Made by a program: the position numbers and the translations under genes. This document shows positions 8,019 to 62,788 of a DNA stretch of 64,000 bases, one piece after another. Numbering within the stretch: the stretch's first letter is position 1; each line of letters starts with the position of its first letter. The stretch covers positions 186,001 through 250,000 of the forward strand of contig NW_027590385.1 in NCBI RefSeq assembly GCF_964213995.1. Reading direction: 5' to 3'. The notes beneath the pieces were generated by a model, which saw only the letters and a list, made by a program, of their open reading frames with translations, searched no databases and had not been told where the DNA came from. This DNA comes from Mustelus asterias (Eukaryota).

Positions 8019-8645
8019 CGGGTGGTGGTGGGGGTGGGGAGGAGGAGAACTGGGGGGAGCGGTGGAAACAATCCTTCAGCATGCACACTATCAAACAGTC
8101 TCGCCGTTGCAGACTTGTCAATGGGATCACTTTTTATTATTCCAAACTCTAGAGAGAAAAGGGTAACCACAATGAATCTCTCCTCCAAGGGCAACTGTCT
8201 CATCACAGCAATCAATCCATTGAACCTTCGTTACACAGACAGCGCGAGAATAGAGGGAAATAAGAACACACTATGGAAAGTGGATAGAGGCACAGTGAGA
8301 GACTGAGAGAGTGCAAAATAATGAGGTCGTTACACAGAAACAAAGAGAGACAGATATAGACAGTGCGTGGGGGAGTCAGCCACATCGTATGAATGAATAA
8401 CAATGTACACAAAGCCAGCGGCCGGAACCCACAAGCATTGGGTCCTCTGAATTGTTGACTAGGGATAAAGAGAAGGTCCAAAAGAAGAGTCAGCTTTTGA
8501 AAACATCTTGAACTGCCTGTGAGTGCGTTGTGTTGTTAGATTCCTTGTGTTGTCAGTTTCCCAAACCAAACCACGGGAAAACTCATCCTGCCGTGTGCAC
8601 GGCAAAGAAATGAACAGGACTTTGCCATTGCAAACAACAACAATG

Positions 8646-8735
8646 GGGCTCGTCCTGGAATTGAACCCGGGACCTCTCGCAGCCTTGCACATCACAACAC
8701 CCAAAGCGCGAATCATACCCCTGGACCAACGAGCC
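8646..8735 (-). tRNA. TRNAP-UGG: tRNA-Pro(TGG) with 18-nt intron at 37/38 (two stem mismatches; possibly pseudogene)
   Basis: GGCTCGTTGGTCCAGGGGTATGATTCGCGCTTTGGG[TGTTGTGATGTGCAAGGC]TGCGAGAGGTCCCGGGTTCAATTCCAGGACGAGCCC; insert at 8682-8699. Confidence 0.75.
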
Positions 8736-9859
8736 GCTGTTGCGGGAGCTCCTCAAATACGGATATATATTGTCATACAAATCTGATCAGACAGCTGCCC
8801 TGAAAGCTGGAAGCGCTGGAGAAACTCAGGAAGCCAGGCAGCAAGTGCACACAGGGAAAGGACTCTCTTCTTACACCTTCATAACCTTTCATTTTACCCT
8901 TTAAGCTGGTAAAGTTTGAAAATGTAGGAAGTTTTAAACAAGTGAAATCCAGGAGGAGCGAGGAAACATAACAACAGGAAAGGGCCCTGACCGGGTACAA
9001 TTCAAGAGAGATAAATGAACAACTTGTTTACAGTCCATGGTCTGAGCGTGAGGAAAGCAGAGTATCATAGAATGTTTGCACCTCAGAATGAGACCATGCA
9101 CAAAATCTTTGAAGAAGTCACGTGTGCTGTGGATAATAGGGAGCCGGTGGGTGTACTGTACAGCGATTTCACAGGAGCTGCAGTGATGAGGTTGGTGGAT
9201 TTGGGAAATTGAGAGGAACACATGAGCAGCTTGTCTGACTATTTCATCTCTTTACCGCTTTCATGCTGCAGCGAAAAGTAATCCTTGTTGCCATTGGATG
9301 AAGGACTAACTTCTGTTCTACCTGAACAGAACATTTTGAAAGAGAGACTTGCCTCTGGTGGAAATAGATCTGAGATGAAAATAATGAAATATAAAACGAA
9401 GTAAATTAGATTAAACATCCAACGTGTTAGAAATATTGGGTCATCCAAACTATTAGAAATATTGGGTTGACAGTAAGTGGCATGAATTGATGCTGTGATC
9501 GCAGATATAGAACTGGAACCCACCATCACACTGAGTGAATCCGCTGTCTGTTTAAATGTTGATCAAAGAAAAATGTTAATCACTTTACACAATGGAACGT
9601 ACGGTAACTCAGTCAATAAGCACCCTCCACTCACAAATAACAGAAAGGGTTAATTTCATCTCACAACTTTAAACTTCTTGCTGTTCCGTACATTTACCAT
9701 GAAGGTTTATAAAGTAAGTGAATAGAATTTGTGATGGTAAAAAACATGTCCACGCCCATGAGGTACGTAAGCATAGTGGCGGACACAGAGGAACAAACAT
9801 AACCATAGACCACGCGAGACAGAGGACAAAGGAGCAACAAAACGGAGGTTAGACATTGA

Positions 9860-9965: not shown

Positions 9966-10939
9966 CAGGGCATTTTTGCAATCAATGATGAAGTACAAAC
10001 TAACATTTTGTTTGCTCTAATTCAGTTCATATGCAACAACGATCTAGAATCGGGGAAATTTTAAAAAATGTTAATTTCAATTATGTTTCGACCTTATTTT
10101 AAATCGGGGAGCCTTTCGTATATGAAATGAACATGTTAACTCCTACAATCCAGAAGCTCTGCTCATGACCAATGTGACCGGCCTAGAATATCAAACAGTG
10201 CAGTCTGATTGCAATTTAAATCCTTGCTTTGTAGAATTATAATTCTGTTGAAAACCTTAGCCATGTGGCAGTCATTCATCTAACATAAGATTTAGAAAAT
10301 AGCATTTGTCCCGAATTTTATCTCTTTCTCCATGACTGCAGTTGCAGAATATTATTCAAGCATTGGGGAATTGTAAATACCACATGGCTGTGAGGTAATG
10401 TGATTCCTTAATATTTAATAACACTTAGAGATGGGACAGCTGTTTTGAAAAGGTATTATCAGTTTTTTTGAACACAATAATCAGTATACTTCAGGAACAC
10501 AGGTGACAAATGGAAGTGTTTCGAATTTGATGCGTGTCCACAGATTCTGCCAAACCTGCTGAGAATTTCCACCATCTAATGCTTGTATTATAAATGCAGG
10601 TTTTATCAGAACATAAAACACACCGCAAGACGGCAACGATAAATGAAATAGTCCCACAAGCTGTTCACGTGTAAATTTTAATTTCCGAAACCCACCAATC
10701 TCATCATTACTGATCCTGTGAAACTTACCTTGTAAAACACGGCAGGCATTCATCTCTCAAAGAACTGAAACGCCTCAAACATGAACTCTCTGCTCTCAAT
10801 CTCAGGACTTTGCAATTATAAAAAACAGCATGCTGGTGAAAGTTTAACTCAGTCCTCACTCCACTGATCTTTGCCGACTTACTGTGTATTTCCCTCATTG
10901 AACACATTTCAGGTTGGGACAGACAAATTCCTGATCTAT
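9966..10939 (-). repeat. Inverted duplication of ~24582-25555
   Basis: Minus ORF 10725-10973 shares RSGICLSQPEMCSMREIHSKSAK with plus ORF 24536-24718. Confidence 0.9.
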
Positions 10940-11816
10940 TGGCAGCGCTTTGCAGCCTATCACTGTCCTTCACTATCTGTGTTTGTTCTTGAACTGTTGC
11001 CCATGTGACATTTCCAATTCGGACACAAATATAGATCTAACTCCACTGCTTCTGACAGAGCTGTTTTCGATCAGGAAACAACTCAGGTTTGTTAAATGGA
11101 TTATCAAAAACTTTAAATCTTAGCATATTGAAGCCGATCAATGACCCTGAAAGCGCCAAATCCTCAGCACTGGACCATGAGGATTTCATTCTCCTGGTTC
11201 TCCCATAGACTGAATACAGGAATTCCACAGTGCCAATTATTCACAGTCGCATTCTCCTTCCAGTCCTGTGCACGTTGTTCAGCTTTGAAATTATTCATCT
11301 TTTCACATTAGCTTCCAGTGTGATGAAAGCAGAGCAGTGATAAGCTGAAGGATTTCAACAGATTTACCACAATAAGGTTTATAACAAACATTACTCTTTG
11401 AATGTGGTGAGCTACAGTGAAATTTTATGCAGTCGAAGGTAACTCACTCATTCTGACAGTTGGTACCAGCAATTGCAATGTAAATATGATGTCGAGATAC
11501 CGGCGTTGGACTGGGGTGGGCACAATAAGAAGTCTGACAGCATCATGTTAAAGTCCAACAGGTTCATTTGCTCCGATAATAAAATCAATTTGCTTTATGT
11601 TATCAGCGCCCCGAAAGCTCCTGACTCCAAGTAGACCTGGTGTTGTAAGACTTCCTAATGTAAATATGAATTGTTGTGGAATTGACAGGATTGTGGAATG
11701 GGGCAGATTTTTCCTTCTTCCTGTTCAACCTGCCACAAGTATCTCTCCCGTTTTCGACCAGGAAGCAATACCCACTCTCCTTAATTCATGTGTTGCACGA
11801 GAGCAATGAATCATCA

Positions 11817-11888
11817 TTCCCTAACCGTGAATCGAACCCAGACCATGGCAGTTAAATAAGCGAATTCTATCGACGAAACCAACATGGA
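11817..11888 (-). pseudogene. tRNA-Glu pseudogene
   Basis: TTCCCTAACCGTGAATCGAACCC = reverse complement of Glu 3' end/B box; rest degenerate. Confidence 0.75.
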
Positions 11889-12444
11889 AATTGAAGTGAT
11901 CTGAGCACTATTGAGCAATTGTGGGCGTGTGTGTGCGTGTGTGATTTGGGAGAAAGGTCACGTGCTCTCGGGTAATCCCTGATGAATGAAGCCTCCGACC
12001 TCTTTATCGCTGAGCGTTTTGTGTTCTTGAGAAATCGTCCTCTGGAGCTGATGCAATGAGGCCAGGAGAGTAATTCACTGCACCGTCTGCAATGTGATTG
12101 CGGTGCGATTTGCTGAAAGCTGTTAATTTTATAAAATTAATCTTTTTGCGAATTCTAAATGAAATGCCCTTCAGTACCCGGTAAGAATTCTCACAACACC
12201 AGGTTAAAGTGCAAGAGGTTTGTTTGAAATCACGAGCTTTCGGAGCGCAGCTCCTTCATCACTCACGCTGAGGATTCACCACATTTTTCTGTCTTTGAAT
12301 GAAAGCAATAGATATCGCGTCAATTCCCCTGTATCCTGAGTGTACGACACTGATTTCCACAGTACACTGCTTTAAATGTTTGTTTTCAATGTGAAATTAA
12401 GTAGTTTGATTCCATGTGAAGCATTTAAACTTACACTCTTCCGG

Positions 12445-12755
12445 GAAGATGGTGACATAGTGGTAAAATCAGTGGAGTATGAATCCTGTGACCCAGGCTC
12501 ACAGGTCACGATCCCAAAGCAGTCTAGAACTGAAACGGAATTGAAAGCTAGTCTCCGTAATGAAGCTTTGTTTTCTGATTGTCATGAAAACACATCTTGC
12601 ACAAGGAAATCTGCCATCCTTCTCCTTTCTGGCCTCCATGGGACTCCAGAGGAAAGGCAATGTGATTGACTCTTAACTGCCCTCTGAAATGGCCCAGCAA
12701 AATACCCAATTCAGAGGGAAATAGGGATGGACAACAAATGCTGGCATTGACAACA
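12445..12755 (+). mobile_element. Old tRNA-derived SINE-like repeat (paralogs ~31632, ~42963)
   Basis: A-box-like GGTGACATAGTGGTAA head; AACTGCCCTCTGAAATGGCC...GGGATGGACAACAAATGCTGGC tail. Confidence 0.55.
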
Positions 12756-13437
12756 AAATATATATTGCATTAGCAGCATTTTATGAAATGATTGATTCTC
12801 ATTTTGTTTCATTTCATGTGAAACAGGGTGATATATTCCAGTGTCTTATTATTTAAAACCTCAACCTTTCAACAGTTCAAACAGGTAAGATTCAGTCAGA
12901 GAAAAGTGAACCACTGTGATCCAAACCTAGGTTTTGTAGTTGCTCCGTATCCCACCTCAAAACAGAAAATGTTGGAAGGACTCATCGGCTTCAAGAGCTT
13001 CTGTGAAGAGGGAAAGAGAGTGAATGATTCAGGTTGCTGACCTTTGACCCTAACTGGAAAAAAGTAGTGATTTAATGATTTTCAAACAAGTACAGAGTCA
13101 AGGAAAATAGAGAGGGAGAGGAGGAAAGAACAAACGGTATTTTGATCGGATGGAAGGCTGCAGCGATTGAATTACAATGGAGATGATTATTGTTCCCACT
13201 GACACAATCTCGCAGATCTGGGTTTGAATCTCATAATAAATGAGAACAAAACCTCTCTCGGAGTTCAGCGCTAAACTCCCCGCCTTCCAGTGAACCGGAG
13301 GCAGTTTTCAGCCACAAACCCACAACTGTGAGATAAGCAACGTAGAAAGAAGAAAGACTCAGCTTGAGCGGTGACACTTCGGGAGGAACGGAGATCTGGA
13401 ATTCACCCAGGAATGAGGCAAAGTTTGAAACCAATGT

Positions 13438-13510
13438 CGCCCAACGTGGGGCTCGAACCCACGACCCTGAGATTAAGAGTCTCATGCTCTACCGACTGAG
13501 CTAGCAGGGC
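13438..13510 (-). tRNA. TRNAK-CUU: tRNA-Lys(CTT)
   Basis: Matches canonical vertebrate Lys-CTT except G5>T (T:T pair in acceptor stem). Confidence 0.9.
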
Positions 13511-14338
13511 ACATGTGCTAAGCTGCTTTCCATAACCTAAAATGCATGGAGCCAACTATGGATTTTTCATCTGGTGTCTCAGCTTGTTCTGATTTCAAAG
13601 TTCACAATGAATCCACCGACAAAATCCCCAAAGTTCCTATCCATTCCTCTCAATCATTAATTACATTATTCACATCTTCCAATTCTTAGCTTCACCTCTC
13701 CCAAATATTCCAAACTCCTCTTACATCATTCACCTTATTATTCTTTGTTCTTAATAATTTAGCCAGGGGTGGGGGGAACTCAACATTTACACTGTTAAAC
13801 TGTTTCCCAGTTTCCGACTTTTCAGTAAGATCAACTCTGATAATTCTAAACTCCAGAGCGAACAGACTCATCCCACTGATTCTCTCCTCCCAGGAGAAAC
13901 GGAGAAATCAATCCAGTGAACCTCGGTTACACACAGACAGCGAAATAATGGACAGAGCAAGGAGCAAAAGATGTCAACGTAATAAAAACATAGAGAGAGA
14001 GTGTGAGGGAGATATATAGAGACAATGAAAAACAGAAATAGCGAGTGCGGTACACATCCACAACCCACGAATGAATAACAATATACACACAGCCAGCTGT
14101 CTCAACCAACAAACATGGGGTCCTCTAAACTGGTGACCAGAGATAAAGTGAATGGCCACAAGCATATTAACCTTTTAATGTCTTGATTTTCTTGTGTGAA
14201 TGTTGTGTTGATAGATTGCCTGCACTGTGTGATCAGGTTCTCAAACCAAATCCCACGTAAACCAATCCCAACGTTTGCACTGCAAATACATTTATAAAGC
14301 CTATGACTTGTCCAATACGAAACAACAGCTGATTGAGG

Positions 14339-14428
14339 GATCTAGCCCGACTTGTGAACCCGAGATCGCTCACACGTTTGTGGTTGTTTACTAACCAGGC
14401 CCGAGTAATACCCCTCGTCCAACGAGCC
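14339..14428 (-). pseudogene. tRNA-Pro pseudogene with 18-nt intron remnant
   Basis: GGCTCGTTGGACGAGGGGTA 5' end, insert AGTAAACAACCACAAACG, degenerate 3' half. Confidence 0.7.
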
Positions 14429-15406
14429 GCTGCTGAGGATGTTGTTCAATAAAAATATTTCCATTGACATCCAAAGCTGCTCAGACTTCTGCAGTGAAAG
14501 GTGAAAATGCTGGAAAAACTCAGAAAGCCAGACAGCTTGTGTGCACAGGAAAACAAATCTTATATTTTAGCACCATAACCTTTCATTGGGAAGAACTGGG
14601 AATTTCTAGAAATGTAAGAAGTTTTAAACAAGTGTTATCCAGCAGCATAACAAGAGGGTTTGAGGCCTCTTGCCGGGTGTAAATCAGGAGAGATTAAATG
14701 AGGGAAACAAAGAATTTTAAAGTAATTAAACCACAAAATGGGGCCATTCCTCAGTCCCTTACAGGACGCAGTTGTGGTGAGGATGAAGGGGAACCTGTGG
14801 ATGTAATGTACGTAGATTACATTGGAGCCACAGTGATGAGTTGGTGGGTTTTGAAAATTGAAAGTTACACTTAGGAACATAGAATTAGGAGCAGAAGTGG
14901 GCAAATTCACCCCTTCGAGCCTGAACCGTCATGCAATCAGTTCATGATTGATCTCTCCCTGTTCTCAAATCCACCTCCCTACCTGTTCCAATATCCCCTC
15001 ATCCCTTTAATTATCAGGAATATATCTGTCTCTTTCTTGAAATCATTTAATGATTCAGACTCAACCGTGCTATGGGGCAATGCATTCCACAAATTCATGA
15101 CCTTCAGTGAGAAGCAGTTCCTCCTCATCTCAGTTTAAATCTACCACCTCTCAACCTATACATTTGACATGGTGTTCCCGATTGCGCATAAGAAAAAAGA
15201 TTTTACTTTCTTCAATCCTATTTAGAATTTTATATACCACGATCACTTCAGCATATTGTGGGACTATTTCACCTCACTGTCGATTTCATGTCCCAGCAAG
15301 CACAATTGGTGTTGTCATTAGCTGAAGCAGTCACTTATGTTCCACCCAAACTGGGCACATTAAGGGATATGTGGTAAGTCATTTTGAAAAATACAGTTCA
15401 CCCGTG

Positions 15407-15476
15407 ACCCTGGGAGTCCAGTGGGTTGTATTCAGTACTCCCCAGTGTTGTTTGTTTTCAATTCCCGCTCAGGAAA
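15407..15476 (+). pseudogene. Degenerate tRNA-Glu pseudogene (paralogs ~34594, ~47435)
   Basis: CCCTGGGAGTCCAGTGG...TTCAATTCCCGCTCAGGAAA ends match Glu. Confidence 0.55.
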
Positions 15477-16412
15477 CGATCATTTATAGGTCTCAGCAAA
15501 CTATTAAAAAATAACCTGATTGACTATCTGATCGAAAGCAGATCTACTAATTTCAGCCGAGTGAGTTTTGCAAGTCTACATCACAGCTGGAAATGTCACA
15601 TGTGCAACAGTCAAGAACAAACACAGTAGCAGAAAGATAGTGATAGGCTGCAAAGCGCTGACAATTGAGATGGTGATGGAAGGTAACATTTGGATGGTAA
15701 AAAGGTCAGATTTTGGCGTTCACACTGAATTATTCACCTTTCCCCTCACTCTGCAACGAAAATATTTGGAAAAGGTTCTCTCTCGTTTCAAACAGTCGAA
15801 AGTGGAATTAATAACTGTAAGTGGAATGTCTGTTGTATGTTGTCACTGATTGAATGTATCACTGGGATGGAAACAGAAGGTGCCATATTGCAACAGAGAC
15901 TTGCTTGTGGTGAATGTAGTCTGGCCTGGCGCGAAAAATAAAGCAATACATGCAGTGTGTGTAAAGCAAGTTGTAAAACAGGCGAAAAGCAGCTGGTCTG
16001 GTGGTCAGAGTTTGACACTTTCACTGCTGTTTGGATTGGTGGTCAGGTAATGGAGATTTGTTGCTCTCATCCAAACCGTAAAAACAAATGTCAGTTATTG
16101 CCTTGTGGAACATATAAAACACAATCTCGCCTCATGTCCTGAAGTGAAGACTGAGCAAATTCAGCAGGAGGTTTTTTTCTTGTCATTTCTGGCAGGATGT
16201 TGGGAACCAGACAAGGTTAAGGGCAGTTTAAATGGTGCTGGTCCTTCACTGCAGCTCATTCTGTTTCTGACAGGATGTGATTCCTGCTTGTTACAGAGTT
16301 CAGGATAAATTGATTCAGTGAAGGAGCAGGCTCAAGCCATCTGATGGACTGTCGCAGCTCCTTTGCTGCTAATTTTAATAACAATACCAGTAAAGGGCAC
16401 AGCTCCTGACGT

Positions 16413-22562: not shown

Positions 22563-22652
22563 GGGCTTGTCTGGGATTTGAACCCAGGGCCTTTCGCAAA
22601 TTGGCAAATCACAACACCCAAAGCAAGAATCATACCCCTACACCAACGAGCC
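22563..22652 (-). pseudogene. tRNA-Pro(TGG) with 18-nt intron, probable pseudogene
   Basis: Insert TGTTGTGATTTGCCAATT (22599-22616) after G37; mismatches in acceptor, D and anticodon stems; T stem CTGGG/CCCAG intact. Confidence 0.75.
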
Positions 22653-29864: not shown

Positions 29865-31003
29865 TCAGCTGCGAACTGGTGCTCGGGATCCAGCATAGTC
29901 TTATTAAGTGGTGGAGGGGGTTCCAGTGGTCAGACTGCATCACGCTTTGTCTCAGAGTTACTGGTTTCTGAGTGAAGTCGGAGAGCTCAGCGTTTAAGTT
30001 AGCGAGATGTTTTCTTGTAATTTGGCTGAGATTTGGATCCAGGTCTGGGAGATGTTTGTGTCAATCTATCCGATAAAATCAACCCCATTTGTCATGCAGA
30101 TTTGAACTTGTATCCCCATCTCTATTGGCAGCGCTTTGCAGCCTATCATTGTCCTTCACTATCTGTGTTTGTTCTTGAACTGTTGCCCATGTGACATTTC
30201 CAATTCGGACACAAATATAGATCTAACTCCACTGCTTCTGACAGAGCTGTTTTCGATCAGGAAACAACTCAGGTCTCTTACATGGATTATCAAAAACTTT
30301 CAATCTTAGCATATTGAAGCCGATCAATGACCCTGAAAGCGCCAAATCCGAAGCACTGGACCACGAGGATTTCATTCTCCTGGTTCTCCCATAGACTGAA
30401 TACAGGGAATTCCACAGTGCCAATTATTCACAGTCGCATTCTCCTTCCAGTCTTGTACACGTTGTTCACCTTTGAAAGTATTCATCTTTTCACATTAGCT
30501 TCCAGTGTGATGAAAGCAGATCAGTGATGAGCTGAAGTTTTTCAACAGATTACCACAATAAGGTTTATAACAAACATTACTCTTTGAATGTGGTGAGCTA
30601 CAGTGAAATTTAATGCAGTAGAAGGTAACTCACTCATTCTGATAGTTGGTACCAGCAATTGCAATGTAAATATGATGTCGAGATACCGGGTTGGACTGGG
30701 GTGGGCACAATAAGAAGTCTCACAGCATCATGTTAAAGTCCAACACGTTCATTTGCTTCGATAATAAAATCAATTTGCTTTATTTGATCAGCGCCCCGAA
30801 AGCCCCTGACTCCAAATAGACCTGGTGTTGTAAGACTTCCTAATGTAAATATGAATTGTTGTGGGTAATGGACAGGATTGTGGAATGGGGCAGATTTTTT
30901 CTTCTTCCTGTTCAACCTGCCACAAGTATCTCTCCCGTTTTCGACCAGGAAGCAACATCCAGTCTCCTTAATTCATGTGTTGCACGAGAGCAATGAATCA
31001 TCA

Positions 31004-31075
31004 TTCCCTACCCGCGAATCGAACCCAATCCGTGGCAGTGAAAGCAGCGAATTCTAGCGACGAAACCAACACGGA
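31004..31075 (-). pseudogene. tRNA-Glu(TTC) pseudogene
   Basis: Paralog of 11817; anticodon CT TTC AC readable. Confidence 0.75.
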
Positions 31076-32624
31076 AATTGAAGTGACCTGAGCATTATTG
31101 AGCAATTGTGGGCGTGTGTGCGCGTGTGTGATTTGGGAGAAAGGTCACGTGCTCTCAGGTAATCCCTGATGAATGAAGCCTCCGACCTCGTTATCGCTGA
31201 GCTTTTTGTGTTCTTGAGCAATCGGCCTCTGAAGCTGATGCAATGAGGCCAGGAGAGTAACTCACTGCACCGTCTGCAATGTGATTGCGGTGCGATTTGT
31301 TGAAAGCTGTTAATTTTATAAAAATAATCTTTTTGCGAATTGCAAATGAAATGCCCTTCAGTACCCGGTAAGAATTCGCACAACACCAAGTTAAAGTGCA
31401 ACAGGTTTGTTTGAAATCACGAGCTTTCGGAGCACAGCTCCTTCATCACTCACGCTGAGGATTCACCACATTTTTCTGTCTTTGAATGAAAGCAATAGAT
31501 ATCTCGTCAGTTCCCCGGTATCCTGAGTGTACGACACTGATTTCCACAGTACACTGCTTTAAATGTTTGTTTTCAATGTGAAATTAAGTGCTTTGATTGC
31601 ATGTGAAGAATTTAAACTTACACTCTTCCGGGAAGATGGTGACATAGTGGTAAAATCAGTGGAGTATGAATCCTGTGGCCCAGGCTCACAGGTCACGATC
31701 CCAAAGCAGTCTAGAACTGAAACGGAAGTGAAAGCTAGTCTCCGTAATGAAGCTTTGTTTTCTGATTGTCATGAAAACATATCTTGCAGAAGGAAATCTG
31801 CCATCCTTCTCCTTTCTGGCCTCCATGGGACTCCAGAGGAAAGGCAATGTGATTGACTCTTAACTGCCCTCTGAAATGGCCCAGCAAAATACCCAATTCA
31901 GAGGGAAAGAGGGATGGACAACAAATGCTGGCATTGACAACAAAATATATATTGCATTAGCAGCATTTTATGAAATGATTAATTCTCATTTTGTTTCATT
32001 TCATGTGAAACAGGGTGATATATTCCAGTGTCTTATTATTTAAAACCTCAACCTTTCAACAGTTCAAACAGGTAAGATTCAGTCAGAGAAAAGTGAACCA
32101 CTGTGATCCAAAACTAGGTTTTGTAGTTGCTCCGTATCCCACCTCAAAACAGAAAATGTTGGAAGGACTCATCGGCTTCAAGAGCTTCTGTGGAGAGGGA
32201 AAGAGAGTGAATGATTCAGGATGCTGACCTTTGACCCTAACTGGAAAAAAGTAGTGATTTAATGATTTTCAAACAAGTCCAGAGTCAAGGAAAATAGAGA
32301 GGGAGAGGAGGAAAGAACAAACGGTATTTTGATCGGATGGAAGGCTGGAGTGATTGAATTACAATGGAGGTGATTATTGTTCCCACTGACACAATCTCGC
32401 AGATCTGGGTTTGAATCTCATAATAAATGAGAACAAAACCTCTCTCGGAGTTCAGCGCTAAACTCCCCGCCTTCCAGTGAACCGGAGGCAATTTTCAGTC
32501 ACAAACCGAAAACTGTGAGAAAAACAACGTAGAAAGAAGAAAGACTCAGTTGGAGCGGTGACACTTCAGGAAGAACGGAGATCGGGAATTCACCCAGGAA
32601 TGAGGCAAAGTTTGAAACCAATGT

Positions 32625-32697
32625 CGCCCAACGTGGGGCTCGAACCCACGACCCTGAGATTAAGAGTCGCAGGCTCTACCGACTGAGCTAGCCGGGC
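32625..32697 (-). tRNA. TRNAK-CUU: tRNA-Lys(CTT) variant
   Basis: Canonical except A26>C and a C:T mismatch in the anticodon stem. Confidence 0.8.
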
Positions 32698-33525
32698 ACA
32701 TGTACTAAGCTGCTTTCCATAACCTAAAAAGAATGGAGACAACTATGGATTTTTCATCTGGTGTGTCAGCTTGTTCTGATTTCAAAGTTGACAATGAATC
32801 CACCGACAGAATCCCCAAAGTTCCTGTCCATTCCTCTCAATCATTAATTACATTATTCACATCTTCCAATTCTTAGCTTCGCCTCTCCCAAACATTCCAA
32901 ACTCCTCTTACATCATTCACCTTATTATTCTTTGTTCTTAATAATTTAGCCAGGGGTGGGGGGAACTCAACATTTACACTGTCAAACTGTTTCCCAGTTT
33001 CCGACTTTTCAGTAAGATCAACCCTGATAATTCTAAACTGCAGAGCGAACAGACTCATCCCACTGATTCTCTCCTCCCAGGAGAAACGGAGAAATCAATC
33101 CAGTGAACCTCGGTTACACACAGACAGCTAAATAATGGACAGAGCAAGGAGCAAAAGATGTCAACGTAATAAAAACATAGACAGAGAGACTGAGGGAGAT
33201 ATATAGAGACAATGAAAAACAGAAATAGCGAGTGCGGTACACATCCACAACCCACGAATGAATAACAATAGACACACAGCCAGCTGTCTCAACCAACAAA
33301 CATGGGGTCCTCTAAACTGGTGACCAGAGATGAAGTGAATGGCCACAAGCATATTAACCTTTTAATGTCTTGATTTTCTTGTGTGAGTGTTGTGTTGATA
33401 GATTGCCTGCACTGTGTGATCAGGTTCTCAAACCAAATCCCACGTAAACCAATCCCAACGTTTGCACTGCAAATACATTTATAAAACCTATGACTTGTCC
33501 AATACGAAACAACAGCTGATTGAGG

Positions 33526-33615
33526 GATCTAGCCCGACTTGTGAACCCGAGATCGCTCACACGTTTGTGGTTGTTTACTCCCCAGGCCCGAGTAATACCC
33601 CTCGTCCAACGAGCC
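33526..33615 (-). pseudogene. tRNA-Pro pseudogene with 18-nt intron remnant
   Basis: Paralog of 14339. Confidence 0.7.
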
Positions 33616-35275
33616 GCTGCTGAGGATGTTGTTCAATAAAAATATTTCCATTGACATCCAAAGCTGCTCAGACTTCTGCAGTGAAAGGTGAAAATGCTGG
33701 AAAAACTCAGAAAGCCAGACAGCTTGTGTGCACAGGAAAACAAATCTTATATTTTAGCACCATAACCTTTCATTGGGAAGAACTGGGAATTTCTAGAAAT
33801 GTAAGAAGTTTTAAACAAGTGTTATCCAGCAGCATAACAAGAGGGTTTGAGGCCTCTTGCGGGTGTAAATCAGGAGAGATTAAATGAGGGAAACAAAGAA
33901 TTTTAAAGTAATTAAACCACAAAATGGGGCCATTCCTCAGTCCCTTACAGGACGCAGTTGTGGTGAGGATGAAGGGGAACCTGTGGATGTAATGTACGTA
34001 GATTACATTGGAGCCACAGTGATGAGTTGGTGGGTTTTGAAAATTGAAAGTTACACTTAGGAACATAGAATTAGGAGCAGAAGTGGGCAAATTCACCCCT
34101 TCGAGCCTGAACCGTCATGCAATCAGTTCATGATTGATCTCTCCCTGTTCTCAAATCCACCTCCCTACCTGTTCCAATATCCCCTCATCCCTTGACTTAT
34201 CAGGAATATATCTGTCTCTTTCTTGAAATCATTTAATGATTCAGACTCAACCCTGCTATGGGGCAATGCATTCCACAAATTCATGACCCTCAGTGAGAAG
34301 CAGTTCCTCCTCATCTCAGTTTTAAATCTACCACCTCTCAACCTATACATTTGACATGGTGTTCCCGATTGCGCATAAGAAAAAAGATTTTACTTTCTTC
34401 AATCCTATTTAGAATTTTATATACCACGATCACTTCAGCATATTGTGGGACTATTTCACCTCACTGTCGATTTCATGTCCCAGCAAGCACAATTGGTGTT
34501 GTCATTAGATGAAGCAGTCACTTATGTTCCACCCAAACTGGGCACATTAAGGGATATATGGTAAGTCATTTTGAAAAACACAGTTCACCCGTGACCCTGG
34601 GAGTCCAGTGGGTTGTATTCAGTACTCCCCAGTGTTGTTTGTTTTCAATTCCCGCTCAGGAAACGATCATTTATAGGTCTCAGCAAACTATTAAAAAATA
34701 ACCTGATTGACTATCTGATCGAAAGCAGATCTACTGATATCAGCCGAGTGAGTTTTGCAAGTCTACATCACAGCTGGAAATGTCACATGTGCAACAGTCA
34801 AGAACAAACACAGTAGCAGAAAGATAGTGATAGGCTGCAAAGCGCTGACAATTGAGATGGTGATGGAAGGTAACATGTGGATGGTAAAAAGTTCAGAATT
34901 TGGCGTTCACACTGAATTATTCACCTTTCCCCTCACTCTGCAACGAAAATATTTGGAAAAGGTTCTCTCTCGTTTCAAACAGTCGAAAGTGGAATTAATA
35001 ACTGTAAGTGGAATGTCTGTTGTATGTTGTCACTGATTGAATGTATCACTGGGATGGAAACAGAAGGTGCCATATTGCAACAGAGACTTGCTTGTGGTGA
35101 ATGTAGTCTGGCCTGGCGCGAAAAATAAAGCAATACATGCAGTGTGTGTAAAGCAAGTTGTAAAACAGGCGAAAAGCAGCTGGTCTGGTGGTCAGAGATT
35201 GACACTTTCACTGCTGTTTGGATTGGTGGTCAGGTAATGGACATTTGTTGCTCTCATCCAAACCGTAAAAACAAA

Positions 35276-45012: not shown

Positions 45013-45101
45013 CCTCTTGCTTGGCCTGTGAACCCAGGACCTCTCGCAAGTTGGTGATGTTAACACCCTCAGCCCGAATCATACCCCTCGTCCAACGAGC
45101 C
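45013..45101 (-). pseudogene. tRNA-Pro (AGG-like) pseudogene with 17-nt intron remnant
   Basis: ...CGGGC TG AGG G[TGTTAACATCACCAACT]TGCGAGAGGTCCTGGGTTCA. Confidence 0.72.
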
Positions 45102-54765: not shown

Positions 54766-55291
54766 AGGGAGATCAACAATGATTTTACTGAATGGCGGAA
54801 CAGGCCCTAATGAAGGAGCAAATAATCCATTGCAACACCTTTTCCCTATTCTCTGATGTTCTTCTGTTCAGCTCATTGTTCTGAGAACAGATTCAAATGG
54901 TTCCTGCTCCTCTCTCTGACGTCAAGAATTGGAGAAGAAAGACACTCGGAGCTGATTGGATGAAATGTAGGATAAAGGAGATGTGAGCTGATTTGGTGTC
55001 TCCTACTGGAAAAGAATGAACCAATCACTATTGGGGCCGGATATTACTCAACATCTTCTGAACTCTGAACTGAAACAATTGAGCTTTAACTCATTGAGTT
55101 CCCATAGGCATTTGCTGGAGGAACGCTTTTTAATTTGGAAGTACAAGATAAGTTGATACATCAGGTTGAAAGTAACGAATGTGTTCTTGCATTAAGTGGC
55201 ATGGGTTCTCAATCTAACCATGTGAACCTGCAGCAACACAGTGGAATTGAGTATTGTAGTCAGACCAATTGGAGGCGATATGCTGTCATTT

Positions 55292-55344
55292 GTTTCTGTA
55301 GTGTAGTGCTTGTAAAGGACCCCGGTCCGAAACCGGGCAGAAGA
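55292..55344 (+). pseudogene. tRNA-Val pseudogene, internally deleted
   Basis: GTTTCTGTAGTGTAGTG...CCCGGTCCGAAACCGGGCAGAA, anticodon arm missing. Confidence 0.75.
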
Positions 55345-55644
55345 ATACATTAAGATTTTTCATGAACGGGTGAGAGAAATCTGAAAGATTTCAGTTTGTT
55401 GGTGAACATTATTCAAATCTCGATTCGTATTATCTTTGCTTGAAGTCGGCCTCAAATGCTTCCTGAAAAATAAATGCTGAATATTTTCACGCACTGACAG
55501 GAAAGAAATGTTTCTATTTTGACAACACGCGCAAATTAGCATTTCGTTCAGTCCACAACAGAATTTAATGGGTTAATAGGTGCAGATTAACATAGTTAAT
55601 CACCATCTGAAACATGTCTAATGGTAGTGTGTGCTCAAAAAGAC

Positions 55645-55712
55645 AGTAGTGTAGTGTTTATCACGTTCGCCTCACACACGATAAGTTCCCGGTGCGAAAC
55701 GGGGCAGAAACA
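55645..55712 (+). pseudogene. tRNA-Val(CAC) pseudogene, 5' end lost
   Basis: TTCGC-CT CAC AC anticodon arm; T loop mutated. Confidence 0.75.
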
Positions 55713-56683
55713 CTGTTGGATCGTTCTCATTAAGCGTGAGCAAAGTCTGCATGATGTAAGTTCATTGCTCAACGTCATGCGAATCCGATTTCACGGTCAT
55801 GTTATATTGGCTTTGACGTCGGCCTCAAATGCATTTAGGAAAGTTCGAAATGCTGTTTTTCGGACGCAGGGAATAAAGAACTCCATTGTTTGTACACATA
55901 TTCGCAACTCGTGCAGTCCACACATTAATTTAATGGGTTTAGAGGTGCAGACTGACGTAGTTAATCACCATCTGAAATATATCGAATAGTATTGTGTGCT
56001 CATAAAGACAGACACAATTGAAAGTCAAACTGAACTGGGGGAAATAGGCGCATTTCACAGAAGCACCTTTGTAAAATTGCTCTTCACAGTAAAGAAATAG
56101 TTCAAACCACTCAGACAAATGTGGAAATCGAGATTCAGTGCGGACCTCCTGGACTTCCGATAGATGGACGAGATTTAGGCGCCAGAATACTTCACGCACA
56201 GAATAAAGAGGATTCAAGTACATTTTATTTTCTTTAAAGGATGAATGTGGTCAATCTCAAATAAACATCATGGCATTGGCATTACCGAGTGACTCTATTT
56301 CTTTTGTTGGTCAGACATGTTTGCAAGACAATGTTGTATATTTCAGAGATATTCAATTCAGAATGAGGACATCTGTGTTAAATAAACGTATTGAAATTAA
56401 ATGTTGAATAACTACAAATATTTGATATAACTCTGAAATTATTTGACGGAAGATGAGAATGATGTATTAGTGAATGAACAGAAGTCATTGCCGCCTGAGA
56501 CATTTGCCAGACGAACGCTTTTTAATTTTGAAGTTCAAGACAAGTTGAGATATCAGGTTGAAAGTAACGAATTTGTTCTTCTATTAATTGACATGGACCC
56601 TCAATGTGACCATGAGAACCTGCAGCAACACAATGTAGTTCAACATTGTAGTCAGGCCAATTGGCGGCGTGGCGCATTCTCTT

Positions 56684-56756
56684 GTTTCTGTCGTGTTGTG
56701 GTTATCACATTGGCCCAACACGTGAAAGATCACCGCTTCAGAACCGGGCAGAACAT
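56684..56756 (+). pseudogene. tRNA-Val(AAC) pseudogene
   Basis: Multiple substitutions relative to 60373. Confidence 0.78.
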
Positions 56757-57947
56757 TCATCAGCTTTCCCATGTAGGGTGAGGGAAATCTGTATGATTTC
56801 AGATCGTCGCTGAACATCAACCAAATCTCGATGTTACAGCCATCTTATCTTTGCTCTGAACTCTGCCTCAAATGATTTCTGTAAAATAAGAAATGCTGAT
56901 TCCTTTGACGCACTGACAGGAAATTTTCGATTTTGACAGTGTGCACACATTAGCATCTCTTTAGGCGGACAACAGAATTTAATGGGTTTAAAGGTGCAGA
57001 CGAACGTAGTTAATCACCATCTGTGCGCTCAAAAAGACAGACACAAGTGAGGAAAAGGCGCACATTTCCTACAACATTTTTTTTTGGAAATCGTTCTTCA
57101 TAACAAGGAAATAGGAAACAGCACTCAGCCAGATGGGGAAATCGAGACTCAGTGCGGATCTATTGGACTTTCCTAAAGATGGCCAACATTTATGCGCATG
57201 AATGTTTTACGCCCACAATTAAAAGGCTTAAGTGCAACTAACAGATATCTTTTCAATCTCTTTCATTTAAATGGAGTTGATTTTGTTTAACAGCAGACTA
57301 TGATCAATGTCAAAATTGCGATCTCCTTTACCCAGTGACTCGCTTCCAACTGTTGGGCAGTTATGTTTGCAATTCAGTGAAATTTAATTTCAGAGATATT
57401 CAATTCATAATGAGGACATATGTATTAAATAATACATTGATACTAAATATTAAAACAAATACTGAGTAAAATTGTAAAATGAGTTTCACGAATGCTATCT
57501 GAAACCGAAACGTCAGCCCTTTTCACTCCTTACAGATGCTGCCAGACATTTTGAGATTTTCCAGCACTTTCTCTGTTGGTTTCAGATTCCAGCATCCACG
57601 GTAAATTGTTTTTATTACTGAGTACAATTGGTTGAGATTATTCGAAGGAAGATGAGAGCGATGCATTAATGAATGAGCAGAAATCATTGCTCCCTCAGAT
57701 ATTTTCCAGACGAACGCTTCTAAGTTTTGAAGTTCAAGATAAGTTGAGCAACCAGTTTGAAAGCAGCGGTTATCTTCCTGAAACAAGACACATTGTTGAG
57801 GGGTGGGTGGGGGAGGGAGGTCGCGAGGGTGAATGGGGAGGGGAGGGGGGAGGAGACGAGGCTCTCAGTCTAACCATTTGAACGTGCAGCACAACTGCGC
57901 AGTTCAACATTGCAGACAGGCAGATTTGCTCAACCGCGTTTCAAGCG

Positions 57948-58020
57948 GTTTCTGTAGCGTAGTGATGATCACGTTGACCTAACACGCGAAAGGTCCCCGA
58001 TTCGAAGCCAAGCGGAAACA
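57948..58020 (+). pseudogene. tRNA-Val(AAC) pseudogene
   Basis: Stem mismatches relative to 60373. Confidence 0.8.
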
Positions 58021-59166
58021 TGCATTACGCTTTCTCGTGTCAGGAAAGTTGCTTGATTTCGGTTTGTTGCGCAACATTATCCGGACCTCCATGTTAAAGG
58101 CATGTTATCATTGCTCTGACAGCACCCTCAAATGCTTTCTGTGAAATAAGAAACGGTTTTTCTTTGACGCACTGACAGGAAAGTTCGGTTTTGACACCGA
58201 GCACATATTCGCACCTCGTTCAGTCGACACCCGAATTTAATGGGTTTATAGGTGCAGACTAATATGGTTGATCACCGTCTGAAATGTCAGATAGTCGTGT
58301 GTGCTCAAAGAGAGAGATACAAGTGATACTGTAAGTGAACGAGAGGAAATGGCGCACATTTCACAGAAGAATCTTTTTTTGAAAATCGTTTTTCATCACT
58401 ACGAAACAGGAAAAACCACTCAGACAGGTGAGGGAATCGAGACTCAGTGCGAATCTAAAGGACTTTCTTGTAAAGGGCCGGAATTTATGCGCATGCATGT
58501 TTCACGCCCATAATTAAAATGGCTCAAGTGTCACGAACAGATAATTCTTGATTCTTCTCCATTTAAATGCAGTTGACTTTGTTTAAAAGCTGACGATAGT
58601 CAATCTCAAAATTGCGATCTGTATTACCCGGTGATTCGATTCGTTCTGTTGGGCAGTTATGTTTGCAATTCAGTCTTGTTCAATTTCAGAAATATTCAAT
58701 TCATAATGAAGACATACGTGTTATATAATTCCTTGATACTAAATAGTGAAACAAATACTGAGTACAATTGTACAATGAGCTTTGATGAAGTGCCATCTGG
58801 ACTCGAAACGCACGCCCTTTTCGCTCCTTACAGGTGCTGCCAGACATTGTGAGATTTTGCAGCATTTTCTCTTTTCTCATCCGCAGTAATTTGCTTTTAT
58901 TACTGAGTACAATTGATTGAGATTATTCGAAAAAGATGAAAATGATGCATTAATGAATGGATAGAAATCATTGCTCCCTTAGATGTTTGCTAAACGAACG
59001 ATTTCAAATGTTGATGTTCGGCATAAGCCGTACAATCAGATTGAAAGTAACGGTTATCTTCCTGAATTCAGTGCCATGGGCTCTCAGTCTCACCATCGGA
59101 ACCTGTAGCAACACAGCGTAGTTGAACATTGCAGACAGGCAGATTTGCTCTATCGTGCTTCAAGCT

Positions 59167-59240
59167 GGTTCTGTAGTGTAGTTGTTGTCGCGTTCGCCTA
59201 ACACGCGGAAAGTTCCCCGATTCGAGACCGGACAGAAACA
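59167..59240 (+). pseudogene. tRNA-Val(AAC) pseudogene
   Basis: D-loop and B-box mutations. Confidence 0.8.
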
Positions 59241-60372
59241 TTCATTAAGCTTTCTCATGTCGGGTAAGGGAAGTCTGCTTGATTGCTGTTTGATGCTGAA
59301 CGTTATCCGAACCTCGATGTTAAAGACATGTTATCATTGCTCTGACATCACCCTCAAATGCTTTCTGTGAAATAAGAAACGATATTTTTTTGACGCACTG
59401 ACAGGAATGTTCGATTTTGACACCGAGCACTTATTCGCATCTCGTTCAGTCTACAACAGAATTTAATGGGTTTAGAGGTGCAGACTAATATGGTTAATCG
59501 CCATCTGAAATATCTGATAGTAGCGTGTGCTCAAAAAGACAGATGCAAGTGATACTGTAAGTGAACGAGAGGAAATGGTGCACATTTCACAGAATATTTT
59601 TTAAAAATCGTTTTTCATCACTGAGAAACAGGAAAAGCCACTCAGACAGATGAGGGAATCGAGACACCGCGCGGATCGACTGGACTTTCCTGTAAAGGGC
59701 CGGAATTTATGCACCTGAATGTTTCACGACCATAATAAAAAGGCTCAAGTGTCACGAACAGATAATTCTTGATTCTCCTCCATTTAAATGTAGTTGACTT
59801 TTTTTTAAAAAGCTGACTATGTTCAATCTTAAAATTGCTCGGTGACTCGATTCATTTTGTTGGTCAGTTATGTTTGCAATTCAGTGATGTTCAATTCCAG
59901 AAATGAAGACATATGTGTCAAATAATGCATTGGTACTAAATATTGAAACAAATATTGCGTACAATTGATGAGCTTTGACAAAACGTCATCTCGACTCGAA
60001 ACGTCAGCTCTTTTCACTCCTTATAGATGCTGCCAGTCCTTGTGAGACTTGCCAGAATTTTCCCTTTTCGTTTACGATTCCAGAATCCGCAATCATTTGC
60101 TTCTTTACTGAGTACAATTGATTGAGATTATTCGAAAAAAGACAAAAATGATGCATTAATGAATGGGCAGAAATCATTGCTCCCTTAGATATTTGCGAGA
60201 CGAACGCTTTTAACTTTTGATGTTCGGGATACGTCGTACAATCAGATTGAAAGTAACGGTTATCTTCCTGAATTCAGTGACATGGGCTCTCAGTCACACC
60301 ATCGGAACCTGCAGCAACACAGCGTAGTTGAACATTGCAGACAGGCAGATTTGCTGAAATGCCTTGCAAGCT

Positions 60373-60445
60373 GTTTCTGTAGTGTAGTGGTTATCACGTT
60401 CGCCTAACGCGCGAAAGGTCCCCGGTTCGAAACCGGGCAGAAACA
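60373..60445 (+). tRNA. TRNAV-AAC: tRNA-Val(AAC)
   Basis: Full cloverleaf GTTTCTG/CAGAAAC, TTCGC-CT AAC GC-GCGAA, CCCGG/CCGGG; G at position 37. Confidence 0.9.
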
Positions 60446-61584
60446 TCCATTAAGCTTTCCCATGTCGGGTAAGGGAAAATTGCTTGATTTCAGTTCATTT
60501 CTCATCATTATCCGAGCCTCGATTTTAAAGGCATGTTTTGATTGCGCTGACATCACCCTCAACTGCTTTCTGTGAATTAAGAAACATTTTTTTTGACGCA
60601 CTGACAGGAAAATTCGATTTTGACACCGAGCACTTATTCTCATCTCGTTCAGTCTGCAACAGAATTTTATGGATTTATAGGTGTAGACTAATATGATTAA
60701 TCACCATCTGAAATATCTGACAGTAGTGTGTGCTCAAAAAGAAAGTTACAACTGATACTGTAAGTGAACTGGAGGAAATGGCGCACATTTCACAGAAGAA
60801 TCTTTTTTTAAATATTCTTTCAACACGAAGAAACATGAAAAGCCACTCATACCGATGAGGGAATCGAGACTCAGCGCGGATATAATGGACTTTCCTGTAA
60901 AGGGCCTGGACTGATTCGCCTGAATGTTTCGCGCCCATAATTAAAAAGGCTCAAGTGTCGCGAACAGATAATTCTTGATTCTTCTCCATTTAAATGCAGT
61001 TGACTTTGTTTAAAAGCTGACGATAGTCAATCTCAAAATTACGATTTGTATTAGCCGGTGATTCGATTCGTTCTGTTGTTCAGTTATGTTTGGGATGAAG
61101 TGATGTTCGATTTCAGAGATATTCAATTAATAATGAAGACATATGTGTTAAATGATGCATTGATACTAAACAGTGAAACAAATACTGAGTACAATTGTAC
61201 AATGAGCTTTGATAAAGTGTCATCTGGACTCGAAACGTCCGCCCTTTTCACTCCTTACAGGTGCTGTCAGACATTGTGAGATTTTGCAGCATTTTCTCTT
61301 TTCTCATCCGCAGTAATTTGCTTTTATTACTGAGTACAATTGATTGAAATGAGTCGAAGGACGATGAAAATGATGCATTAATGAATGGGCAGAAATTATT
61401 GCTCCCTTAGATATTTCCTTTTTATATTTTGATGTTCGGGATAAGTCGTACAATCAGATTGAAAGTAACGGTTACCTTCCTGAATTAGGTGGCATGGACT
61501 CTCTGTCTAACCATCGGAACCTGCAGCAACACAGCGTAGTTCAACATTTCATCCAGGTAGATTTGCTCTAACGTGCTCGAAGCT

Positions 61585-61658
61585 GTTTCTGTCGTGTCGT
61601 GGTTATCACGTTCGACCAGCACGTGAAAAATTCCCCGGTTTGAAAGGGGGCAGAAACA
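61585..61658 (+). pseudogene. tRNA-Val pseudogene
   Basis: Degenerate anticodon and T arms. Confidence 0.78.
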
Positions 61659-62788
61659 TTCATTAAGCTTTCTCATGTCGGGTGAGAGAAAATTGCTTTA
61701 TTTCAGTTTGATGCTCAACATTATCCGAGCCTCGATGTTAAAGGCATGTTATCATTGCTCTGACATCACCCTCAAATGCTTTCTGTGAAATAAGAAACGC
61801 TTCTTTTTTGACGCACTGACAGGAAATTTCGATTTTGACACCGAACACTTCTTCGCATCTCGTTCAGTCTACAACAGAATTTAATGGGTTTATCGGTGCA
61901 GACTAATATGGTTAATCGCCGTCTGAAATATCTGATCGTAGTGTGTGCTCAAAAAGACAGATACAAGTGAGACTGTAAGTGAACGAGAGGAAATGGCGCA
62001 CATTTCACAGAAGAATCTTTTTTTAAATCGTTTTTCATCACTAAAACACGAGAAGCCACTCAGACAGATGAGGAAATCGAGACACAGTGCGGATCTACTA
62101 GACTTTCCTGTAAAGGGCCGGAATTTATGCGCATGAATGTTTCACGCCCATAATAAAAAAGGCTCAAGGGTCACTGGCAGATAATTCTTAAATCTCTTCC
62201 ATTTCGATCTAGTTGACTTCTTAAAAAAAACTGACTATGTTCAATCTTAAAATTGCAATCTGTACTACCCGGTGACTAGATTCATTTTGTTGGTCAGTTA
62301 TGTTTGCAAATCAGTGATGTTGAATTTCAGAGATATTCAATTCATAATGAAGGCATATGTGTTAAATAATGCATTGATACCAAATATTGAAACAAATATT
62401 GAGTACAATTGCACAATGAGCTTTTACAAAATGTCATCTCAACACGAAACGCCAGGTCGTTTCACACCTTATAGATGCTGCCAGTCTTTGTGAGACTTGC
62501 CAGAATTTTCCCTTTTCGTTTCCGATTCCTGCATCCGCAGTAATTTGCTTTTATTCCTGAGTACAATTGATTGAGATTATTGGAAGGAAGATGAGAATGA
62601 TGAAATGATGAATGGGTGGAAATCATTGCTCCCTTAAATATTTTCCAGACGAACGTTTTTAACTTTTGATGTTCGGGATACGTCCTGCAATCAGATTGAA
62701 AGGAAAGGTTATCTTCCGAAATTAAGTGCCCTGGGTTCTCAGTCCAACCATCCGAACCTGCAGCAACACAGCGTAGTTGGACATTGCA

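Follow-up and report, generated by a model that had tools for sequence, protein, structure and literature searches.

Does a tRNA-Pro gene that is split in its anticodon loop belong, in a shark, to a gene family that is spliced, or does it record a chance insertion in a dead gene? The question is raised by the gene at 8646..8735 on the minus strand of the window, by which we mean the whole 64,000-nt stretch of DNA analysed here (C353:186001-250000 of the genome). Animal tRNA introns are described as essentially limited to Tyr, Ile-UAU, Leu-CAA and Arg-UCU, according to a 2025 paper that draws on GtRNAdb (PMC12530127). The first-pass annotation of this DNA had listed five Pro copies with an insert exactly between tRNA positions 37 and 38, had proposed from them a spliced tRNA-Pro lineage in sharks, and had cautioned that every copy carries stem mismatches.

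The interrupted gene and its neighbours

The 8646..8735 locus is a tRNA-Pro(TGG) gene of 72 + 18 nt with a canonical 37/38 intron, and is a damaged member of a 46-locus cluster defined by flanks. Read on the minus strand, its 5' exon (8700..8735) holds tRNA positions 1-37 with the A box and D arm, the anticodon TGG lying at 8703-8701 and G37 at 8700; the 18-nt intron occupies 8682..8699, and the 3' exon (8646..8681) holds positions 38-73, with the B box at about 8666-8658. A 43-nt 3' trailer (8603..8645, minus strand) ends in TTTCTTT (8610-8604), and a TATA-like element, kept in the subfamily and presumably functional, lies on the same strand at 8763..8769, about 30 nt upstream of the gene. 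Alignment of the copy with L034, an intronless Pro-TGG gene from this genome, shows four exon differences and places the insert exactly between G37 and T38. As had been claimed, the 3' end of this intron can pair with T32-G35, that is, G at -3 with U32, A at -4 with U33, A at -5 with U34 and C at -6 with G35. Two changes break stems, G28.A42 in the anticodon stem and A63.G51 in the T stem; there is no T4 run, the TTTCTTT at +36 being the only candidate stop, and a clean T4 terminator is absent from the whole subfamily. The copy lacks the intact stems and terminator of a functional Pol III tRNA gene, and is itself probably a dying one. It is labelled, wrongly, as Gln by ARAGORN; the output of that program with long introns and a low threshold was mostly noise and was set aside.

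All five Pro copies lie on the minus strand of the window, which is a piece of a mixed tRNA gene array with internal duplications (Thr, Lys, Cys, Asn, Leu and Val genes, together with decayed copies). The second Pro(TGG) copy, at 22563..22652, has an 18-nt intron, seven exon differences from L034 and, as claimed, A at intron position -3; the 1.9-kb unit around it shares 85% identity with the 8646 unit. The decayed copy at 45013..45101 has a 17-nt intron and 17 exon differences from L034, while those at 14339..14428 and 33526..33615 each have 18 nt of extra length, with 22 and 20 differences, respectively. The copy at 33526 is a duplicate of that at 14339 (within a 5.1-kb block, 97% identical), and neither anticodon is Pro-TGG any longer (GGT in 14339, GGG in 33526). 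The exact 37/38 position of the insert holds for 8646, 22563 and 45013; in 14339 and 33526 it is given by length only, from which the intron ends of these two copies were set. The caution over stem mismatches was well founded, as all five copies are damaged. Rfam at its gathering threshold detected none of the five, and all are probably non-functional.

Other tRNA sequences are plentiful in the window. Between 4839 and 60445 there are 13 Rfam tRNA matches (Thr, Lys, Cys, Asn, Leu and Val), and duplicated blocks also hold decayed relics, Glu-like ones among them. Two such blocks, 10935-16088 and 30121-35275, are 97% identical. From 55088 to 62788, units of about 1.2 kb stand in tandem, each with a tRNA-Val(AAC) gene or relic.

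Intron-bearing Pro and Arg-TCG genes across the genome

A DNA search of the 3.68-Gb genome with the 8646 gene returned 438 candidates, 40 of which were scored and 30 fetched; these 30 show the insert at 37/38 without any pattern demanding that position, and many have perfect exons. An exact-flank pattern, in which 25 exon bases are fixed around a gap of 10-30 nt and which therefore imposes the 37/38 position itself, matched 175 loci, an upper estimate for loci with intact flanks and a lower one for decayed loci, since many lie on small scaffolds that may include haplotype duplicates and inflate the counts. The reversed control gave no match, so the pattern is not a product of chance. The anticodons are TGG (94 loci), AGG (62) and CGG (19), with no GGG, and widening the gap to 8-36 nt left the total unchanged (94 TGG and 81 others). 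Our joint analysis covers 173 of these loci, the last two being AGG genes. The corresponding gap-free junction gave 10 exact matches and again none in the reversed control, a ratio of intron-bearing to intronless loci of about 17:1. With up to two mismatches the intronless matches number 27, of which about nine resemble real genes with flanks of their own and T-run terminators, and most of the remainder are retro-inserted copies. Intronless genes exist for TGG, AGG and CGG alike, and splicing of the Pro family is thus not forced by necessity. One intronless Pro-TGG locus (L037, minus strand, 2385, the same as L204; C4, about 147.247 Mb) carries a compensatory G31-C39 pair and C20, unlike the otherwise uniform mature sequence.

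The exons of this family are strongly conserved. In 59 of the 173 loci they are identical to those of the intronless gene apart from base 34, and these loci retain the intact mature tRNA body that TSEN recognizes, which the five window copies lack. The absence of any intact intron-bearing Pro gene had been named in advance as grounds for rejecting a spliced lineage, and such genes are present. Zero or one exon difference is found in 103 of the 173 loci, and four or more changes in 26 of the 94 TGG loci. Over the 46 exon positions that the pattern leaves free, identity to the intronless gene has a mean of 95% and a median of 98%. Pairs of loci whose 40-nt flanks are 70-80% identical agree at 94% of the free exon positions and 72% of the intron, while pairs with flanks 80-90% identical reach 96.5% and 83%. 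A BLAST comparison of 800-nt flanks from 11 intron-bearing and 4 intronless representatives detected no gene-adjacent homology between seven intron-bearing lineages, or between these and intronless genes, the few short hits lying away from the genes; the exons are nevertheless common to all seven lineages. L047 and L048 are dispersed AGG genes, each in a single copy, that lie on an 85-Mb scaffold with 1.8 kb between them; both have T4-T5 terminators and the exon variant C20, and their introns are unrelated. Conserved exons in lineages with unrelated flanks and introns are a pattern that a chance insertion in a dead gene cannot yield. A T4 run lies within 60 nt of 128 of the 173 loci. A tRNA-derived SINE would be recognized by scattered copies that have a body or tail in common and differ in their flanks. 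The family does not look like this: array copies share kilobase flanks with their relatives, and SINE-fused retrocopies account for only 8 of the 173.

The introns are 13-18 nt long (13, 14, 15, 17 or 18 nt) and comprise 65 distinct sequences in the 173 loci, all at 37/38. In eukaryotic tRNA introns Y32 pairs with a purine at the third-last intron base, and a short helix extends this pair (PMC10275265; PMC10485636). Here, a purine is found at -3 in 157 loci and at -4 in 172, and a pyrimidine at -6 in 170 of the 173. All four pairs from U32 to G35 are possible in 47 of 66 distinct anticodon-intron types, and the helix has a mean of 3.65 of 4 pairs in these types as against 1.90 in shuffled introns, with shifted registers fitting worse. 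Bases 34 and -5 can pair in 54 of the 66 types compared with 30.7 after label shuffling, a contrast that the shuffle overstates because there are few independent lineages. Position -5 tracks base 34, with T opposite A34 in 20 of 22 types, A or G opposite U34 in 29 of 35 and G opposite C34 in 5 of 9; the 34:-5 pair is broken in L047 and L044. The genome contains one exon-sized match to the TSEN catalytic domain (PF01974) above the cut-off. Minimum-free-energy folds of three precursors gave no full cloverleaf, with z values of -0.9, -1.4 and -2.5.

The Y32:R(-3) pair is absent in 16 CGG loci, of which 15 come from one lineage. This 15-locus Pro-CGG lineage has T at -3 and keeps A at -4, mostly G at -5, and T at -6, so that positions -4 to -6 can pair; the loci recorded under T at -3 are L129-L136, L148, L149, L165, L170, L175, L179, L188 and L189. 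The lineage offers a natural test of the need for the 32:-3 pair.

Introns at 37/38 are also found in Arg-TCG genes, where the exact-flank search gave 58 loci, all with anticodon TCG, introns of 16-22 nt and, as read from the listing, G at -3 opposite C32 in all 58. They lie on C85, C102, C103, C130, C141, C155 and other scaffolds (for example L349, L350 and L358), and the single intronless match, L363, is an intact dispersed gene. Arg-TCG is thus a second isotype outside the four known animal intron families. Among other tRNA genes, a locus in the C91 array (L339, 7468-7543) combines a tRNA-Cys-type body with a GTA (Tyr) anticodon and is likely a point-mutated copy. tRNA-Sec has at least five strong matches, at C5:21.68-21.70 Mb and C2:45.65 Mb (L386-L390), four of them within 14 kb. 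These copies, the vertebrate-type tRNAs, the 3.68-Gb size and a SINE that is presumably of the HE1 type would fit a shark genome.

Traces of transcripts and the competing explanations

In eight of the 173 intron-bearing copies the head of a SINE, presumably of the elasmobranch HE1 type, is fused on just past a short trailer. A control for parent assignment comes from retro-inserted intronless copies, in which leader and trailer can be traced to a particular parent gene and SINE or LINE-like sequence comes next. The trailer pattern of the 8646 subfamily occurs at 22 loci, 19 of which are array-type genes, and the intron is kept in all 19. Two independent retro-insertions derive from this trailer type. 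L364 (C2) is a 5'-truncated, SINE-fused copy of the subfamily; L031/L366 (C3) is a full-length and precisely intronless Pro-TGG sequence that has the 4-nt leader and passes from its 43-nt trailer into LINE-like sequence. In L364 and L031 alike the tRNA-derived part stops at TTTCTTT, for this reason a likely Pol III stop. The L031 trailer is identical to that of L370 at 41 of 43 positions and matches none of eight intronless genes (scores 10-16, as against 56-76 for the best intron-bearing members). The simplest reading is that L031 is likely a retrocopy of a spliced, untrimmed precursor of the 8646 subfamily. A template switch or conversion could also have taken out its intron, since the intronless TGG genes of C3 are 5.5 Mb away from L031 and retrocopies of theirs are concentrated in this zone. 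Beside it lies L365, a partial inverted duplicate; the idea that this copy is a 3' half starting at the splice site was rejected, as it retains a TTTGG anticodon-loop remnant and is a 96% identical duplicate of L031. Read as traces of transcripts, the retro-inserted copies indicate that intron-bearing genes were transcribed in the past.

Other SINE or LINE insertions carry a whole pre-tRNA-Pro transcript, complete with leader and trailer, at the 5' end (L032, L033, L191-L203 and L206; C3 128-147 Mb, C4 about 147 Mb, C10, and C17 about 71-72 Mb). Most of these captured copies lie within about 15 Mb of the parent gene, a proximity suggesting that nascent Pol III transcripts are captured locally in the course of retrotransposition. 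At another locus (L043, 1367-1745; C14, about 65.108 Mb) an intron-bearing Tyr-like sequence, an intron-bearing Pro, an Arg-like sequence and a Thr stand head to tail, about 10-25 nt apart, ahead of a SINE; it is likely a chain of precursors, ligated or template-switched, that was retro-inserted. Chimeric retrocopies of small RNAs and LINEs (U6/L1 and tRNA/L1) are alike in that a Pol III transcript is fused to the 5' end of a retroelement (PMC11838501; PMC6789731), but in primates the tRNA part is typically a half in antisense, whereas here we find whole sense precursors with leader and trailer, often with the intron, and once four in a row.

We consider it very probable that the Pro copies of the window are damaged members of a large and old intron-bearing family, whose intact members are likely transcribed by Pol III and spliced by TSEN and RtcB to ordinary tRNA-Pro. 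The spliced lineage that had been proposed for sharks gains support from the 59 flawless-exon loci, the three anticodons and the 17:1 excess of intron-bearing loci. To judge from the retrocopies, the primary transcript would have begun with a short leader and run through the trailer to the T-rich stop, in the germline at least and at some past time. By analogy with TSEN chemistry, U32 would pair with the purine at -3 and bases 33-35 with -4 to -6, the mature body and the 32:-3 pair would guide TSEN to cut after 37 and before 38, and RtcB would ligate the two halves, yielding the same tRNA as the roughly nine intronless genes. The genes themselves owe their number to duplication of the DNA within large mixed tRNA arrays, a process of birth and death in which copies such as 8646 arise and decay.

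Two other explanations fit poorly with the pattern of conservation. The loci might be silent passengers, descended from an insertion in one dead tRNA-Pro gene that was copied along with the arrays, their exons kept intact by youth or by conversion from intronless genes. Consistent with this, many copies are recent, near-identical duplicates, many have decayed, including all five in the window, and intronless genes are available for every anticodon. We nevertheless judge it very unlikely, since exon conservation is far above that of introns and flanks at equal depth, seven lineages are without flank homology, the 65 different introns all lie at 37/38 and nearly all have the -3/-4/-6 pattern, and the retro-inserted copies are bounded by transcript-like ends. 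Alternatively, the genes could be transcribed and left mostly unspliced, with selection acting on the A and B boxes and the cloverleaf for some other role, in chromatin boundaries, tRNA fragments or free introns. Barrier and free-intron functions have been described in yeast (PMC10275265), the intron is kept in at least eight retrocopies and absent in one, and one CGG lineage is without the 32:-3 pair. Such a role would hardly account for a mature sequence that is identical throughout in 59 loci, acceptor and anticodon stems included, for the absence of the GGG anticodon in all 175, or for intron conservation at exactly those positions that TSEN reads (PMC10275265; PMC10485636), and we regard it, too, as very unlikely.

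A further possibility is compatible with the preferred explanation of a spliced family and refines it. The intron-bearing genes may be spliced but restricted to the oocyte or early embryo, with a few dispersed intronless genes supplying the adult soma, a suggestion that we put forward tentatively. Stage-specific use of tRNA arrays is known from frogs and zebrafish. Small scaffolds with large arrays hold most of the intron-bearing genes, those without an intron are scattered and have strong terminators, and retrocopies arose in the germline. Against such a division of labour stand L047 and L048, intron-bearing AGG genes that are dispersed and single-copy, with T4-T5 terminators, on the 85-Mb scaffold, and the finding of only one intronless gene for Arg-TCG.

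Relation to known tRNA introns and implications

The introns of the animal Tyr(GUA), Ile(UAU), Leu(CAA) and Arg(UCU) genes resemble those described here in lying at 37/38, in being short and variable in sequence, and in the Y32:R(-3) pair with its adjoining helix; moreover, intron-bearing and intronless genes are mixed for Arg-UCU and Leu-CAA in animals, as they are in the Pro family (PMC10275265). The differences lie in the isotypes, as Pro (AGG, CGG and TGG) and Arg-TCG are called essentially intron-free in metazoa in PMC12530127, and in copy number, which is about 175 for Pro and 58 for Arg-TCG compared with 5-13 per family in human. Among fungi, Saccharomyces cerevisiae has 10 intron-bearing tP(UGG) genes with introns of 30-33 nt (PMC13079951). 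Introns are common in the tRNA-Pro genes of yeast and of the microbial eukaryotes found in metagenomes. The tRNA-Pro introns of fungi and microbial eukaryotes are alike in isotype and position, those found here being shorter (13-18 nt), and we claim no sequence homology. Across eukaryotes, UCG, AGG, UGG and CGG are among the more intron-rich anticodons (PMC12168002, axis order of Fig. S7), and both gain and loss of tRNA introns have been documented among yeasts (PMC4090602). Among the metagenome matches listed, intron-bearing Pro sequences have U32 opposite a purine at -3 in 113 of 123. None of the full-length metagenome matches listed (at least 120 loci) has an animal-type acceptor stem or exons, the closest listed differing at seven or more sites (the difference counts for AGG and CGG being overstated by one), and the scan is thus uninformative about other animals.

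For shark genomes, the Squalomix preprint (10.1101/2025.06.08.657570) reports that tRNA loci with introns have expanded, that tRNA genes occur in clusters and that tRNA-Sec is present in several copies. The relevant passages of that preprint give no isotype, exon-intron analysis or splicing test, and its figure or supplements may list Pro; the multiplicity of tRNA-Sec matches the copies found here. Predictions of tRNA genes also exist for the elephant shark (PMC8450103), and database entries for genes of this kind may therefore already exist. Our literature search found no description of Pro or Arg-UCG introns in vertebrates, and automatic annotations (GtRNAdb, RefSeq) may already list them. 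Judged by its sequences, the family is real and under selection, and its introns are canonical tRNA introns in isotypes that are said to lack them in animals; automatic annotations possibly contain it already. The Pro and Arg-TCG introns likely account for the unexplained surplus of intron-containing tRNA loci that has been reported from sharks.

On balance we lean towards a broader view, in which sharks break the four-family rule and most of their genes for all three Pro tRNAs and Arg-UCG are spliced, the introns being either old eukaryotic ones that cartilaginous fishes kept and bony vertebrates lost, or rare new gains in a vertebrate, and in which retro-inserted fossils of unspliced and spliced precursors record the order of processing. 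There is no settled answer as to why tRNA introns persist or how they arise (PMC12168002, PMC4090602). G37 is present in both the intron-bearing and the intronless types, and in yeast Trm5 acts only after splicing (PMC10275265). The distribution of these introns over chimaeras, rays, lampreys and amphioxus would tell gain from loss in vertebrates. A vertebrate in which hundreds of Pro and Arg-UCG genes have an intron, next to intronless counterparts that encode the same mature sequence, amounts to a natural experiment, in which modification, stage-specific use and the load on TSEN could be compared with and without an intron.
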